Shown piece by piece: positions 37,401 through 47,191 of a DNA stretch of 64,000 nucleotides. Made by a program: the position numbers and the translations under genes. This DNA comes from Gekko japonicus (Eukaryota), in assembly GCF_001447785.1 (NCBI RefSeq), contig NW_015171536.1, positions 483,102 through 547,101 on the forward strand. The letters run 5' to 3'. Each line of letters opens with the position of its first letter. The stretch's first letter is position 1. Under the pieces are notes generated by a model that saw only the letters and a list, made by a program, of their open reading frames with translations, did not search any database and was not told where the DNA came from.

Positions 37401-38827
37401 TGCATTTAGCTTTTATTATCAACCTAACTTTTCATGTGATAGTCCTTAACTCTGATAGATTTTTTTAAAAAAGATCCATTCCCAGAGAGTAAATCAAAAT
37501 GTTNNNNNNNNNNCAGCAGGACCCACAAAGCCCATATGAAAGAAGAATAAGGATAGGGTGATTTAGTTGATATAAATACAGAACTTTTCAAAAACAATAT
37601 TGTACCAGACTGATGCAAACAAAGTGAAATTAGGTAAAAGCATGTTTCTTAGGTAGTTTACAAAGCTACTGTCTCCTTATGTGAGCTAAACAGGTGGCAA
37701 TATCCTGAGGATTCTTTCTTGTTGTGACAGGGAAGAGTAAGGTGCTTGAAATACACCCAGGGAACCCAAATCTCTTGGAAGAACACTCTTNNNNNNNNNN
37801 NNNNNNNNNNNNNNCTTTCCCAAGGAAGGCAGTAATAAACTGCTTAAATTGCCAGCTAAGAAGAGATGAGTTTCCTGCAAGGAGACAGTAATTTGCCCAG
37901 CTGCCAGGAAGGGGCAAGATAGATGGCTATTTGGATAACCTGAGCTGGGCAATAAAGAAGGGAGGCATTCTCTGCAAGGTGACTGGAGAAAGGAATGCCA
38001 GGTGTCCCACAAGGGCATTACTCCCCAAACTTAGGACTGGGTAAATAGACTCTGTCCCAGCTAGGACTGCAAGGGTTAACAAATATGAACATTCTGTTAC
38101 AGGTGCACAAAGAGCCACTGAAGTTGATGAGGGGCAGCTAAAGGAATAAAGGGGCACCTGCCTCTAAGTTCCAGCAGACTTGCTCCCACCTCACAGAGGG
38201 GGATGCCAAAGATAACATCTGTGTCTCTAAAGGTTAGACTAGCCCAAAGGGTTTTTCCCCTCTTTCTTAATTCTGCAATAGTCCTTCAGTGCTGTGATAC
38301 CCTTTTCAGTGCTCCAGAGTGTAAAGTTGTGTTGTAGTAAATAAAGATCTTTCTCATTTAAGAACTCAGACTGTGTTCAAAAAGCCTTAACCTATGTCTA
38401 ACCATTCACTCATGCTTATGCTACAGCTTCTTTGTGAGGCTGGCTAAAGAGAAAGCAAGAAGAGAGTGGGTTCTTAGCAGCATCCTCACTCCATGCACCC
38501 ACACAGAAACCAACCAGTGCCCCAAACCACAGGTGACTGAGAGACACCATATCATTTTGGGTGGTGTCATGCTGGAATACCTGGTGGGAAGAAAGGAAGA
38601 AGTGACAGGGTGCCTTGGCTCATACAAGCATGCACCCTCCCCATTACATCACTGATGTTACAATAGAGAAGAATATGGAATGCTTAGTTACAGCTCATAT
38701 ATTTGCAATGCAACGCTAAGCACAAAGGGCCCGGGTAGGCGAGGCCCGCCATTTGCGGGGCCAGGTGGGGGAGGAAGCGGCTGGCCAATCGTTGGGTCGG
38801 GGGGGCAGGCGAGTGGTGGGAAGTTAG

Positions 38828-40831
38828 GTGCTTCCCCTCCCTCCCCAGGCCAATTGCCAGGCAGCAGGTTGGCCGGAGGGAGAGGCCTGGATATACGTGA
38901 CCCAGGTCACTTGCCGTCCTCATGCCGTCCTCACGCCGTTCCATCGGCAGCTGGAGCTGCTTGCTGCTAGGTTGGCTGGAGGGAGAGGCCTGGATATACG
39001 TGACACAGGTCACTTGCCGTCCTCACGCCGTTCCATCGTGGGGAGCTGCCTGGGTGAAAGAGTGGAGGATGGTGGCCAGGTATGTCCCCCGGGGCATAGG
39101 ACCGCACCATACATGGAAGCCCCCCCCTGCAGCTGCTGGGACCGGCCGGGGGAGGCTGCTGTGCGCAGCTCTTCTTCTGGCCGCGCCAACCAGCATCAGG
39201 GCTCAGGCCAGGTGCAGTCGGCCTGGGGCATTGTGGCTCCCTCTGCTCGGCCACTCGGTCCATCAGGCCTTCCGCTGCCTCACCACTCCCTCCCCTGGGG
39301 CCTAGGGCCGCACCATTCCATGGCGCCCCCCGGCCACTGGGGGCTGGCCGTGGGGAGGCTGCTGAGAGTGGCCCCCTTTTGCGGCCACATGGTCAGCGGG
39401 CTTCGCGCAGCTCCACCCCTTCCGGCCGCGCCAGCCGGCATCAAGGCTTGGCCAGACGTGGGCAGCATGGGGCCTTGCGGATCCTCCGCACGGCGGCCCA
39501 GACCATCAGCCCAGCCACTGCCTCACCACTCCCTCCCCCGGGGCCCAGGACCATGCCATTCAGTGGTGCCCCCCGCCGCTGCTGGGGGGGTGGCTGGGGG
39601 TAGCTGCCATGTGTGGCTCCCCTTTTCAGCCATGGGGCGGTGGGCTGCATGCGGCCATGCCCCTCCCCCTACCAGGCTCCTGCCTGGGCACGTGTGGTTG
39701 GTGGGGGGGCCAGATGGTCCAAACATGGGAGCATGCCCCCCCTGGGCAACAGGCGGTTTAGCCAATAATCTCGGCCCCCTACCACGGGCGCGGAGACCCA
39801 GCGGGCAGCTGATGATGGCACCATTTGCCGCCGTGGGGGGTCCTCCACCAGCACGGCTACTCAGCAGTCGGCACGCAATAAGACCAAGGGGCAGGGGGGG
39901 CTCAGGCTTCTCAGCATGCCCCTGAGTTGAGACTGAGAGTGAGGATTCATCAGGTGAGGTTGCAGCAGGTGGGGACAGGCTGCCGCTGAGCGACTATTGG
40001 GCGGTAGCGGCCCATAAACTGGGGTTGCCGGCTTGGGCAATTCATCGTAGGGCCTTGACTGCCCGGGCCAACGGGGATCCCGGGGCGGTCTGTGATGACG
40101 TGGATGTGTCCGATCCATCCTCCACCTTGTCCACGTATTCAAATGGCGAGGATCCGCCGGGGTGTCACTTAACAGATGAGGTTTGGGATAGTATTTTAGA
40201 TTGGTATTATGTTAATGTCTTTACTTTGCACAAGAAATGAGGGGAAGAGGGTTGCATGTTGACATCAGGCAGGAAGGAAAGGAAGGACAGACACAAGGAG
40301 GTGGAGCACACCTTTCTCAACTGGATCTCTGGCTACTTGTTATACACGGGAGTAGTGGCGATGGTGTATCCGGAAAGGGGTTGGCATCTGCTTTACCACA
40401 TGAACAACGTGGTCAAAGCCAGGGTCCTGGCCAGCGAGGGTCTGGCCATTGACTATGACAAGACGTGCCGTAAGCTGGTGTCATGGGACAACAGGGCATG
40501 GTGGGACTTGTTACAGGACAAAGTTTGGCTCCTGGAGGTAGGACCCTGTATAAAAGGGAAAGGAGAGGTCAAACCCAAACGGGGATCCGTGAGGCGGGAT
40601 CGGGCACGAGGGGTATGCTGGGAATATAACCAAAGGTGGTGCCGGAGGGCATGGTGTAAATTCAGTCACAGTTGCAAACTGTGTGGTGGGGGGCACGGAT
40701 GGATTTATTGTGCGCAGTCATCAGTCAGCTACCAGCCCTTTCGGGGTGGCAAGCCCTCCTCCGGTGGCACCACCAACAAAGGGGGAGGGGGGTCTTCCGG
40801 CACCGCAGCCACTTTTTCGTCAAGACGCTAG
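38828..40831 (+). pseudogene. Ngaro ORF1 (gag-like) with C-terminal Cys/His zinc finger
   Basis: ORFs 38828-39925, 40025-40240 and 40256-40831 share one frame, separated by single TGA stops at 39923 and 40238. Motifs PPGCHLTDEVWDSILDWYYVNVFTL, TFLNW, and CWEYNQRWCRRAWCKFSHSCKLCGGGH. Confidence 0.75.
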
Positions 40832-40849
40832 CACCTCACGGGGATTTTG

Positions 40850-42351
40850 GTCCTGGGCAATTACCCCGGTGCGGGTATCGGCCTTGAGACTGCTCCTGTT
40901 GGCATTCCCCTCCAAGAAGGCTGGCCAATATATTTGGGCTTCCCCATCCCTTTCAAGGGCCTGCGCTGTGCCATGGATTCAGATAATCTGAGGTCAGCCA
41001 AGGACCTGCCTGACGTGGTTGCCAAAAAGCTCCAGAAGGAGCTTTCTGTGGGGCACATCGTGGGTCCTTTTAGTGATCCCCCTTTAGCGAACCTGAGGGT
41101 ATCCCTCTTGGGAGTAGTGCCTAAGAAGACACCGGGCAAGTATCGCTTCATTCATCATCTCTCCTATCGGAAGGGTTCTTCGGTGAACAACATGATTCCG
41201 CCAGAGCTTTGCTCAGTTCGATATGCCTCGTTTGATCATGCTGTCGGGCTGGTCAGAGCATGTGGGTGGGGGGTGCTAATGGCCAAATGTGATATCCAGT
41301 CAGCATTCCGGTTGCTTCCAGTCTGCCCAGATGACTTCTGCTTTCTGGGTTTCAAATTTGGAGCGGCCTGGTACATGGACAAGGCCGCGAGGGGGCGGTC
41401 TGGTACACGAGGGATCACTCATTATCTGGATGATTTTTCTTTGTCGGCCCCAGGGACAATGGCACCTGTGCAGAATCTTTGCGGGCATTTCAAGGGCTTG
41501 CTGAGGAACTTGGTGTGCCGTTGGCTGCGGATAAGACCAAGGGGCCGACAACGCAGTTGACTTATCTTGGTATTCAGCTTGATTCAGAGAGGGGGGCATC
41601 GAGATTGCCGGAGGAGAAGCTCTAGGCCCTTCAGGCGCTCATCACATTAGTACGGGTGTGTTCCAAGTGCACCTTGAGGGAACTACAGTCATTGGTGGGG
41701 CATCTGAACTTTGTGTGCCGGGTCATTTCTCCAGGCAGGGCCTTTTGCTCTCGGCTAAGCCGGGCAACAGAAGGGGTCAGAGCACCCCATCATCGTGTAC
41801 GGGTGACTAATGGCATGAAGGAGGATTTGGGAGTCTGGCTTCAGTTTCTTTTGGGGTACAACGGGGTCACCATTTGGCAACAGCCCCTGGATGTGCAGGA
41901 TGCCATTCAGATACACTCTGACATGGCCGGGGGTGCCATGTTTGGAGTCTTTTATGAAGGCCGCTGGTGTGCACAGCCTTGGCCCGAGGCCTGGGGGGGG
42001 GTTGGAAGTTCTCAAGGATCTCACCTTTTTAGAGCTCTTACCAATACTGGTGGCGGTTGTGATTTGAAGGGATCTCTTTCGGAACAGGAGGGTGCGATTT
42101 GGGTGCGACAACCAGGCGGTTATGCGTGTGATGCGTCTGAACAAGTGATGCGGCTGGTCTGCTGGCTGGCTTTAGTGTGCTTGGTGGATAACATTACATT
42201 TGCAGCCCATCACGTTCCAGGTGTGGATAACAGCATAACGGATGCTTTGTCTTGCTTTCAGGAGGAGCGCTTTCGCGCATTGGCACTGGAAGCCAACCAC
42301 GTTCCAGACCTCTTTCCGGAGGAGGTTTGGGAACTTGGGAAGGTACAATAA
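40850..42351 (+). pseudogene. Ngaro reverse transcriptase / RNase H (frameshifted, with stops and an internal deletion)
   Basis: LGVVPKK..GKYRFIHHLS, MAKCDIQSAFRLLP, HYLDDF (41423-41434), LQSLVGHLNF; RNase H motifs IHSD..GG, FGCDNQAV, HVPGVDNSITDALS. Confidence 0.9.
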
Positions 42352-43248
42352 GGCGGGGAATCTATGCCTCCATTGCCCCCTCCACTTTTCACTCTTACGC
42401 CAGGGCGATAGATGCCTTTTTCAACTTTACGGCGGAAGGCGGGGCCCCACAAACATGGCCCGTGGATGGGGAATGGGTGCTGCATTACATGGCTAGGCTT
42501 CAGGATAAAGGGTTTGCCCAGAGTACCATTCGGTGTCGCATGGCAGCCATTACATTTTTTAGTAAAGCGGAGGGGTTCATGGACCCTGCAACTCATTCCA
42601 AGCTTGTAGAGCGGTCGAGGGGTGGTGGAGGCTAGCAGTACAGTATCTGGATCACCGCAGGCCACTGACATTTAAATTATTAGAGCTAGTGTTGTGGGAG
42701 CTTCCGTCATTGTGTTGGTCCCCATATGAAACCGCGCTGTTCAAAGCTGCATTCGTGTTGGACTTTTTCGGGGCCCTGATGGTTGTTAAACTGGTAGCGG
42801 GCTCCAGACAATCATTCACCAATATGCCCTTGGGGGTTTGGGATGTTTTCATTGGGGTGGAAGGGGTCTCCTTGTTTATCAAGAGATCAAAGACGGATCA
42901 ATTGGGAAAATAAGCAAATTTGCACCTGGGCCCCCCCCCCCGGGGTGGCCATGCCCAGTACAGACCACGAGAGCATTCCTTGTGATGCGGCCACGGAAGG
43001 GCAGCCCCTTGCTCATCGACAGGGATGGGGCCCTGTTGACCAGGTACCAGTTCACGGGCGTGTTCAAGGTGGCACTGGGGGCTATGGACTTGCCCAGCAA
43101 GGAATTTGGGCCCCACTCATTTAGGATTTGGGCAGCAACCACGGCTGTGGGCCTCAGGATGTCCAAGATGCGCATAAGAGCCATTGGGCGGTGGCGCTCA
43201 ATGGCCTTCAAGGCATACATGCGGCCGCACCTGGTGGGTGGCCGATGA
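42340..43248 (+). pseudogene. Ngaro tyrosine recombinase (frameshifted)
   Basis: SIAPST..SY, FFGAL(M), IKRSKTDQ, CPV, HSFR (HxxR), IGRWRS and AFKAYMRP (catalytic Tyr). Confidence 0.9.
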
Positions 43249-43268
43249 GGGCATCTCTGCCTCCTCAG

Positions 43269-43845
43269 TTCCAGATCAGAAATGCATAAAGGCATGGATT
43301 TTTGGGCACAGCATCGTTCATTGGGCTGGTTTGTATGCATTTCTAGCTGGGGCAAGGATTTGGGGCTGGAGGCAGCCATTCGCATCACGTGGATGGCCCA
43401 GCGGGGTATGTGGTGGAGATTGTTACTGCCCTGGTTGGGCCATGTCAGGGCCTGACACTAACCTCCTGATGCATTGGTGCTCCAACTGGGGGAGAATGAT
43501 TTGACAGAACAACCCAGCGTGTGTCTGGAATGCAAGGTGCTGGCTGACTTAGCCTTCTTGCGTCAGGTATTGCCCAACACAGTTTTCTTTTGGTCGGATT
43601 GGCTGGAACGGAGGTCATGGTGAGGAGCGGCCTATCCTGGAAAAGTGGACGTGGCAAGGAGGAAGTTGTCTGGCAGGCTGGGCAAGGCGGTTGAGTCTGC
43701 AGACGGTGTTTGGATCAGCCACCCGAACATCTCCCACAGGTTGGGGGCCTTGTTCCGGGCAGATGGAGTGCACCTGTCAGCATGGGGTATGGACATATGG
43801 CTACAGGGAATACGTTATTCTCTCCACTCTTGGCTACAGCTGTAG
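43269..43845 (+). pseudogene. SGNH/GDSL hydrolase ORF carried by the Ngaro element (disrupted)
   Basis: Block I WIFGHS (43304-43312), block III LQLGEND (43489-43500) and block V DGVH (43762-43773), spread across frameshifts and stops. Confidence 0.85.
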
Positions 43846-45367
43846 AGGCATTGGCGGGAGAAGGACTAAGTGGTTTGTCCTGCTCTCGTGGCCGTGACAG
43901 CATGGGGCCGGATCCGTTTGGCGGAAATCAGCCTGTGTGCCATTTTCCCGAGGTGGGGACCCCGTAAGGGTCTTGGCATGAGGGCTGAAGGGAGCAGACA
44001 AGCTCAAGGACTAACAGCGATAGACCTCACCGCTAGGTGGCAGGGGAGTCCACACAGGGGCAGGCGTCCAGGTGAACCCTGGCAACCTGCCATCCTGCAG
44101 TCTCTACCCATGCTGGCTGGCTGGGTAACAGATATCTCAGCTGGCAGAAGGGTCAGCCGACGGGTCGGATCTGGTGGACCCATGCTGTGCCAATGCCTAT
44201 AACAGCTGTAATCAATAAAGTTGTGGCCAATTTTATCCACCTAATTTCCAAAGAACCTGTGTGTGAGTGGTCATTTGAACGGGGCAGTATAAGGCTGGCC
44301 AAGCCGCCCCATCCCGAATACGACCTGGAACCGCAAACAGAGTTACACCCTTCAAAATCTATGGAAGTTAACGTGTGGTTTAGGACTGCACTGTTAATGT
44401 AGGGTAGGTTCGAAGGGTAGCCGTGTTGATCTGCAGTAGTACAGCTAGGCAGGAAGCCAGTAGCACCTTAGAGAATTCCACTTTGGGAGGAGATGAAAAA
44501 TACTTGAGATAAAATGCTGCAAGAAAGCATTCTTTTTAATTGTGTATTTCAATGGAAGTATCAACTGATGACTCTGAAGAATGCTTAGAACTGTACTACT
44601 GCATGTTCCATAAGCCCAAGGGCAAAATATTGGGGTGGTGGGGAGAACAAAGAGAAGAGCCCAGGCAACAGTAGCTGTATTCAAAATGGTACTGTTTCTG
44701 TTTAACACAAAGATGGACACCTCTTAGCAACAGGGAAATGAGTTCTCATTAATACCTCCTTGCATATGATCTTCGACAAGTCAAACGGATCAAGTGCCCC
44801 CATCCCTCTTCCCTTCCTTGGCTTGGGCTCTGCCATGGGCCCATCTCCTCAGGTTGCTATGAATGATCAGCACAGCACCCTGTCAGCCACACACTTTATC
44901 TCTCCTTTGGAATCTAGCATGTGCAGCAGGCAAAGACTAGGACTGGGTTGTGGTGATGGGCGTCATGTTCAAGCTGCAGAGGTGGCATGTACACAGAGAA
45001 GAAAAGCAGAGGAGAGGGAGGGAGGGAGTAAGAGCCCAAATGAGGAGGACCATGTGCCGTGTACCAGGCTCTGGAGATTGAGGGGCCTGGCTGACATGGG
45101 CTCCAACTCTATTACCACAAAGAGGGAGGGGGGGACAGGCAAAACCACAGGGTATTATGCTATGGATATTATGGAATCTTATTTCCCTATATGTATGAGA
45201 TATACCTATCTACCATACAACAATCTTATAAGATTTGCTGAAACCAATGAGAAGTAATGTTAGAGCAACTTTTCTGAACAGTTATGACATTTCCTGCAAT
45301 CAACCAAATATATGTTAGATCTCATCAGAGAGAAAAAAAGGCATACAGTGAGACGTGCTAGTCTTAC

Positions 45368-46812: not shown

Positions 46813-47191
46813 CAGGTCTTTTTTTGTAGAAAAAGCACAGCAGGAACTCATTAGCATAACAGGCCACACCCAACAGCAGAAACACATTAGCATATTAGGC
46901 TACATCCCTGACAGCAGCTAATTAGCATATTATGCCACACCCCACATTGCCAGAAGTGTGGTCATCCAGCCACACTCACCTTTTGCTTCTTATTCTGTTT
47001 ACCTTTGTTGTCAAAACCCAGGGCTTTTTTTGTAGCAGGAACCCTTTGTATGTTAGGCCACGCACCCCAGTCTTAATGAGTTTCTGCTGTTGGGTGTGGC
47101 CTATTATGCTAATGAGTTCCTGCTGGGCGTGGCCAACTCGGGAGTTAGCAGGAACTCCGTTCCTGTGCGTTCCTGCCCAAAAATAGCCCTG
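46813..47191. mobile_element. hAT-type MITE, composite (extra internal left end at 47019)
   Basis: Perfect 8-bp TSD cacacacc; caggtcttttttt / aaaaatagccctg ends. Confidence 0.8.

Follow-up and report, generated by a model that had tools for sequence, protein, structure and literature searches.

The 64,000-nucleotide stretch of the Gekko japonicus genome analysed here (the window) contains, at positions 38718-44341, one copy of a Ngaro-type tyrosine-recombinase retrotransposon, in which a 5′ repeat (A1), open reading frame 1 (ORF1), reverse transcriptase/RNase H (RT/RH), the tyrosine recombinase (YR), an SGNH hydrolase frame and a 3′ repeat (B) follow one another. The family of this copy keeps one predicted phase-1 splice donor in ORF1 and two phase-1 acceptors, and likely makes two subgenomic messages from them, one for the recombinase and one for the hydrolase; the window copy itself has decayed. 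We assign this reading a probability of roughly 0.87. The features of the copy are as follows.

38718..38925 (+): 5′ split direct repeat A1, matching A1 and the downstream A2 of siblings L060, L063 and L064
39050..39777 (+): GC-rich variable 5′ region, not the ORF1 start of the family; without sibling similarity, the sibling ATG and helical segment missing
39778..39953 (+): broken remnant of the shared ORF1 exon (sibling N-terminus residues ~109-167); stop at 39923-25
39951..39959 (+): predicted shared donor CAG/GTGAGG, phase 1, cut between 39953 and 39954
39954..40831 (+): remaining ORF1 (gag-like core, CCCH finger); one internal stop at 40238-40
40593..42351 (+): RT/RNase H frame with frameshifts and a deletion; sibling frames match PF00078
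40736..40744 (+): candidate +1 frameshift site CCC_TTT_CGG in the ORF1 frame, RT in +1; motif match only
42243..42261 (+): predicted recombinase-exon acceptor, phase 1; pyrimidine tract, AG at 42260-61
42262..43248 (+): tyrosine recombinase exon, broken; PF02899 E 5e-6, sibling frame PF00589; no ATG before the SAM-like domain
43253..43274 (+): predicted hydrolase-exon acceptor, both AGs phase 1; main AG 43273-74, minor AG 43267-68
43275..43845 (+): SGNH hydrolase exon, broken in the window copy; GHS at 43304; relatives match PF13472, PDB 4c1b and SGNH folds
43885..44341 (+): 3′ end with repeat B, repeated in L060, L063 and L064; no such repeat elsewhere in the window

By the features tested (RT/RNase H, YR, repeats and SGNH ORF), the element belongs to Ngaro, in the order DIRS. 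The YR follows RT/RH, with PF02899 matched in the window and both PF02899 and PF00589 in a sibling (P0002). The frames searched are free of a methyltransferase: in L134, a sister-clade copy with all four frames open, the RT frame matches RVT_1 only and the last frame matches PF13472 above the cut-off. The RT assignment comes from PF00078 matches in sibling frames (E 2e-12 for L134; about 1e-5 for L052 and L064, which falls short of the curated cut-off); the RT fragments of the window copy have no Pfam match, and RNase H was assigned by motif only. The split direct repeat layout A1...B1-A2-B2 is present in L060, L063 and L064. Repeat comparison within the window found no A2-B2 in the window copy, where A1 is partly duplicated at 38969-39031. 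Siblings in the 2.5-Gb genome are about 75-91% identical to the window copy, and homologues of the element are chiefly from lizards.

Every frame of the window copy is interrupted by stops or frameshifts, the hydrolase by a frameshift near 43340 and three stops further on. Because of the in-frame stop at 39923-25, the loss of the first ~108 ORF1 codons and the broken hydrolase, this copy cannot make a fusion protein. In siblings some 165 codons of ORF1 lie ahead of the donor (167 in L052), among them a basic stretch and a segment that is heptad-like; in a tblastn search with the L052 N-terminus, the window match is confined to 39778-39952. The earlier note on this DNA had described the ORF1 N-terminus as low-complexity. 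The GC-rich upstream frame of this copy is not where ORF1 of the family starts, and the family N-terminus is more than low-complexity: it is a basic stretch with one or two predicted helices. Two candidate starts, the ATG ATG at 39812 and the 365-codon frame at 38828-39925, were rejected on the same sibling comparison.

Conservation of the ORF1 donor

The donor that the earlier note had placed at 39953/39954, in phase 1 of the ORF1 frame, has the correct coordinates and phase, and it is the only MAG/GTRAG in 38718-44340. GTGAG is retained in 14/15 homologous copies of the window family (17 copies, minus L042, which is not homologous at the donor, and L046, which is the same place as L043). In 22 elements the 600 nt that precede the gag-like core were scored for their top ORF1 donor. 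It is in phase 1 in all 13 that could be scored, that is, where it lies within an open ORF1 frame with a score of at least 4.5; in the other nine the donor is weak or lies past a break. The sister clade carries the donor G/GTAAG, which is invariant in 22/22 copies (72-100% identity), two wobble positions included, against an average of 76% at third codon positions.

The predicted hydrolase acceptor

Two AGs, at 43267-68 and 43273-74, had been proposed as acceptors in phase 1 of the hydrolase frame, and both have that phase. The intron from 39954 measures 3315 nt to the first (ending at 43268) and 3321 nt to the second. The two AGs differ in conservation: the second is kept in 28/30 window-family copies and the first, the weaker site, in 15/30. 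The first was therefore rejected as the main acceptor; it may be a minor site, and tandem phase-1 AGs occur in several families. A G follows the second AG in 28/30 copies. The hydrolase frame has no ATG after the YR stop (43246-48), as the earlier note observed, and none in frame between the upstream stop at 43175-77 and the GHS motif. Among the family copies, 28/30 have an in-frame stop upstream of the hydrolase, 21 of them at 96 nt; an upstream in-frame ATG occurs in eight, spread over six positions, and is lacking in 22.

A protein search of the genome gave 154 hydrolase matches, from which 40 diverged ones were retrieved with preference for those with few stops, and L058 was added. After removal of L154 and L155, in which the anchor was displaced, 39 diverged loci at 35-63% hydrolase identity could be used. 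In 37 of them the top-scoring acceptor no more than 75 nt from the catalytic motif is in phase 1, and the two others have AT at the homologous position. Acceptor scores reach at least 3 bits in 30/39 loci, compared with 7% of control windows from the coding region, and a YTRAY branch motif lies upstream in 29/39 (about 1 in 4 would be expected under equal base use). The acceptor is situated in a non-coding spacer. No in-frame ATG is present in the hydrolase exon of 23/39 loci, and the ATGs of the remainder are scattered.

The offset between the YR and hydrolase frames was 0, +1 and +2 in 9, 7 and 9 of 25 loci, a count that excludes the 14 of 39 loci without a findable YR end and to which decay adds noise. 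Because all three offsets are seen, no fixed frameshift or readthrough fits. A quick hydrolase tree, built without reference elements, falls into the window's clade and a sister clade, so that the splice pattern spans both. The earlier note had proposed checking donor, acceptor and phase in further copies; all three are kept within the family and across diverged Ngaro families. Neither a conserved ATG nor a fixed offset, two of the features that the same note would have held against splicing, exists among the copies.

Six loci (L127, L131, L136, L141, L154 and L155) have hydrolase frames with no RT or YR match in ~7.5 kb upstream. Most of them keep an intact acceptor, and some of the frames are fully open; they may be truncated copies or captured exons.

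The predicted recombinase acceptor and access to RT

Like the hydrolase, the YR frame lacks a start codon of its own. A CAG at the RNase H end (AG 42260-61) is present in 19/19 anchored loci, in phase 1 of the YR frame, and the YR part of RefSeq YR isoforms starts where this acceptor predicts.

For RT we found no conserved phase-1 acceptor; in 18 loci the best sites fall into the three phases 4, 5 and 9 times. The CCCTTT of the candidate +1 site is kept in 15/18 copies and is found too in L120, L128 and L150; three diverged loci have CCC_TTT_CAG in place of CCC_TTT_CGG. The sister clade has no CCC_TTT_CG motif, and an in-frame ATG takes its place. UUU_CGN is a +1 frameshift motif in amalgaviruses (PMC5052127) and in influenza PA-X (PMC3498833). 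The likeness lies in a CCC_TTT_CGG that is in frame with ORF1, RT being in +1; in Ngaro it is a match of motif alone, limited to the window's clade, where it is possibly a route to RT and is offered as a lead only.

In five loci (L129, L133, L134, L140 and L142), a CAG preceded by a strong pyrimidine tract (5.9-9.9 bits) lies ~205 nt before the RT TP motif, inside ORF1 just ahead of the zinc finger, in phase 2 of the RT frame and phase 0 of ORF1.

Annotated proteins with a shared N-terminus

A profile search with the hydrolase found 79 proteins, many of them RefSeq models 320-365 aa long, which belong to geckos, to other lizards and to a frog. Seventeen match the ORF1 N-terminus of the sister-clade elements of this genome, the matches being confined to the first ~165 residues of the ORF1 frame, and in P0058 the match stops at the predicted donor. 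A YR profile search gave 301 matches, of which the 120 listed were analysed. Of these, 28 are at least 360 aa long, and 20 of the 28 have an N-terminus that also occurs on a hydrolase protein. For P0200 and P0203 the BLAST matches lie in YR sequence and were not counted; P0200 is included from direct comparison.

At three loci in two lizard species, RefSeq isoforms of the same locus have an identical prefix followed by either YR or SGNH:

Hemicordylus LOC128347973, X1/X2: common prefix of 123 aa, YR versus SGNH isoforms
Hemicordylus LOC128328362, X1/X3 (X3 is XP_053114247.1): common prefix of 139 aa, YR versus SGNH isoforms
Zootoca LOC118082278, X1/X2 (XP_060139102.1 and XP_034965332.2): common prefix of 207 aa, YR versus SGNH isoforms; on the window's side of the tree

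The residue at which the members of a pair first differ is G, D or E in 12/12 cases (these three pairs and three cross-locus or unnamed pairs). Codons for these residues begin with G, which fits the requirement of a phase-1 donor ending in G. RefSeq alternative isoforms generally need transcript support, although these pairs may still rest on sequence signals. On the splice model, many 'uncharacterized' or 'xerD homolog' gene models of lizards and frogs would appear to be Ngaro isoforms.

A search for longer proteins with the window-family hydrolase found no match. Other long proteins do end in a Ngaro hydrolase domain, among them P0252 (XP_054845357.1), a ZNF318-like isoform of Eublepharis whose hydrolase lies near the window's clade, and many more; their architecture suggests that host exons are spliced to the hydrolase acceptor, and that this acceptor can capture them. 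In P0045 a short piece of YR exon separates the N-terminus from the hydrolase, and P0022 has a YR tail joined to the hydrolase; extra donors inside YR or annotation errors are possible explanations.

Proposed expression scheme and alternatives

In the scheme we favour, splicing from the ORF1 donor to the AG at 42260-61 would join the ORF1 N-terminus to the recombinase, and splicing from the same donor to the AG at 43273-74 would join it to the SGNH esterase. RNA left unspliced at the donor would provide full ORF1 and the genome, and RT would be reached by a separate route, possibly a +1 frameshift in the window's clade. A spliced message joining the ORF1 N-terminus to SGNH is supported by position and phase conserved across families, by the variable YR-hydrolase frame and by the architecture of database proteins. 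The earlier note had identified the splice sites, which are confirmed, and had proposed this fusion for the window copy; it holds for the family and not for the decayed copy, and the scheme was incomplete in that the same donor likely serves the recombinase as well. We infer that the splice occurs in the RNA of the window family.

Several observations limit this scheme or weigh against it. Four sequencing runs of Gekko japonicus compared with 38500-44500 gave 49, 39, 230 and 25 records (X1-X4), mostly on the 3′ repeat; X1 and X2 are contigs whose RNA origin is only guessed, and X3 and X4 are raw RNA, read to 3% and 12%. Depth over the element body is ~0-4 in these runs, with no read or contig joining donor and acceptor, a cover too sparse to count for or against splicing; three joints are listed, none of them between the predicted donor and acceptors. 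Neither a motif scan nor the 218 redundant loci yielded an intron-less genomic copy, and the internal deletions that lie near the sites (L003/L040, L037 and L218) retain 236-1342 nt between the pieces. The window family has no clear branch motif, and the database search found no protein that matches its own N-terminus, most annotated fusions falling in the sister clade. Gnomon/RefSeq models follow alignments where these are present and ab initio intrinsic signals elsewhere (PMC12605758), so that the isoform pairs may rest on the same sequence signals. The CAG of the YR acceptor also encodes the Gln in a conserved RNase H motif, and only 8/19 loci have it as their best local AG; for these two reasons the case from sequence alone is weaker for this acceptor. 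The loci are related, so that the counts are not independent, and donor and acceptor scores come from rough, approximate matrices of our own making.

The hydrolase acceptor could be real and yet be joined mainly to another exon, such as a non-coding leader near A1, an exon from an internal promoter or a host exon. Six siblings carry a pyrimidine tract and AG just ahead of the ORF1 ATG, which suggests a 5′ untranslated region (UTR) intron, the Eublepharis ZNF318-like isoform terminates in a Ngaro hydrolase, and some in-frame ATG exists in 16/39 diverged loci. A leader exon, however, would bring no start codon with it, and in most loci the hydrolase exon itself lacks one; moreover, conservation of the ORF1 donor extends to its matching phase, and the annotated isoforms bear the ORF1 N-terminus. 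We consider this explanation improbable. Still less probable is that ribosomes reach the recombinase and hydrolase from an upstream frame by frameshifting or stop readthrough, although frameshifting is the standing proposal for the Ngaro YR (Poulter and Butler 2015, as quoted in PMC13003380), the YR overlaps RT/RH in the -1 frame, and the window-family hydrolase frame is open ~70 nt into YR. The occurrence of all three YR-hydrolase offsets argues against it, as do sister-clade spacers of up to ~90 nt past the YR stop, a YR frame that opens only 3-30 nt before the predicted acceptor, and database isoforms in which YR and SGNH are attached to the ORF1 N-terminus. A minor RT-YR product of frameshifting could be made in addition.

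The splice motifs might also be by-products of coding constraint and base composition. Retention of the donor in 14/15 and of the acceptor in 28/30 window-family copies is about what neutral decay predicts at 82-91% identity, and these counts therefore define the state of the family and do not show selection; the donor encodes Gly-Glu or Gly-Lys codons, and 46/291 windows of 600 nt contain a donor of that score. This explanation is nevertheless very hard to credit, because the acceptor recurs in a non-coding spacer in families at 35-63% identity and because the residues flanking the donor differ between clades while GT[AG]AG and its phase are retained.

The shared N-terminus and the esterase domain

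An AlphaFold model of a gecko fusion protein (P0004) has helices at 37-54 and 72-92 (predicted local distance difference test, pLDDT, 60-73), then a linker without order and an SGNH domain modelled with confidence, and it matches platelet-activating factor acetylhydrolase (PAF-AH) and GDSL folds with E about 1e-7. The SGNH blocks GxS, G, GxND and DxxH are present in the alignments, from which L124 was left out; the window-family hydrolase (P0001) has no SGNH Pfam match, yet its sequence can be aligned over these catalytic blocks. Among solved structures, sequence comparison matched just one, the esterase of the ZfL2-1 long interspersed nuclear element (LINE) ORF1p (PDB 4c1b, E 8.8e-6). In ZfL2-1 a dimerising coiled coil and an arginine-rich motif precede the esterase, and dimerisation, esterase activity and binding of phospholipids are established (PMC3905857). 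The Ngaro protein resembles it in that predicted helices and a basic stretch come before its SGNH domain. It differs in that ZfL2-1 ORF1p is a single unspliced ORF1 of a non-long-terminal-repeat element, whereas the Ngaro esterase is a predicted spliced exon, and in that activity and lipid binding were demonstrated for the former and the latter is known from sequence and predicted fold.

By analogy with this layout, the shared basic-helical N-terminus could be a tag through which recombinase and esterase assemble together with Gag, an idea to which we give nearly even odds. A wider proposal, which we regard as more doubtful, is that in vertebrate Ngaro elements one RNA runs a programme like that of a complex retrovirus: a 5′ UTR intron, a shared ORF1 exon leading to YR or esterase, a PA-X-type +1 frameshift to RT, and an N-terminus that packages the recombinase and a membrane-binding esterase into a Gag particle, converging on the design of LINE ORF1p.

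A pyrimidine tract and AG stand directly before the ORF1 ATG in L048, L050, L051, L052 and L054 (altered in L049 and L053), following a region of variable length, and an intron in the 5′ UTR is possible there. A CAG/GTATGT donor lies near window position 39080 and is not found in most siblings.

Relation to known elements

The closest likeness is to Xenopus DIRS-53_XT and DIRS-54_XT, Ngaro elements with an SGNH ORF (PMC9210276): the order of gag-like, RT/RH, YR and SGNH frames, the split direct repeats and the overlapping frames are the same. The hydrolase ORF of Ngaro is known without a proven function (PMC9210276, PMC6681497, PMC7192593); the sections of PMC9210276 on these elements give it no function and contain no word starting 'splic', and introns and splicing are not mentioned in the sections consulted of a paper on fungal Ngaro elements (PMC3783388). 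We found no description of spliced Ngaro messages in the literature searched, though Poulter and Butler 2015, Goodwin and Poulter 2004, Repbase or supplements may mention them. For known Ngaro elements frameshifting has been proposed for the YR; here YR and hydrolase look like alternative 3′ exons that share one ORF1 exon, and splicing, if true, would replace the frameshift route so far assumed.

Spliced subgenomic RNA is typical for ORF3 of long terminal repeat (LTR) elements, and GDSL-type ORF3s occur in rotifer LTR elements (PMC5408684). The parallel with these and with retroviral env is that a downstream ORF without a start is expressed from a spliced subgenomic RNA. The Ngaro donor differs in lying 135-205 codons inside ORF1 and in being common to two enzymes, the integrating recombinase included, and its predicted product is a basic, helical N-terminus with an SGNH fold and not an envelope glycoprotein. 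The earlier note's comparison with env thus suits the expression route and not the product, which has no apparent signal or membrane-spanning segment by eye or in the structure model.

The splice model addresses how downstream ORFs without starts are expressed in tyrosine-recombinase retrotransposons. It settles where recombinase and esterase truly begin, so that both could be expressed and assayed in their natural form. The junctions that it predicts are exact and could be sought in gonad RNA-seq that already exists; in a newt, a Ngaro is enriched in testis (PMC13003380).

Other copies and flanking repeats

Eight sister-clade loci (L129, L130, L133, L134, L137, L138, L140 and L142) are largely intact Ngaro elements with 67-87% identity to L134, and a genome search found no near-identical copy of L134. 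L059, L060, L061 and L063 are deletion derivatives that retain the YR tail, the hydrolase and the 3′ repeats; in L060 and L061, A1 is fused straight to the YR tail, and the join is distant from the splice sites. Flanking repeats lie at window positions 44337-44474 and 46835-47128 and include an inverted repeat pair of 55 nt. The first of these is a common short repeat that attracted most reads of the RNA runs.

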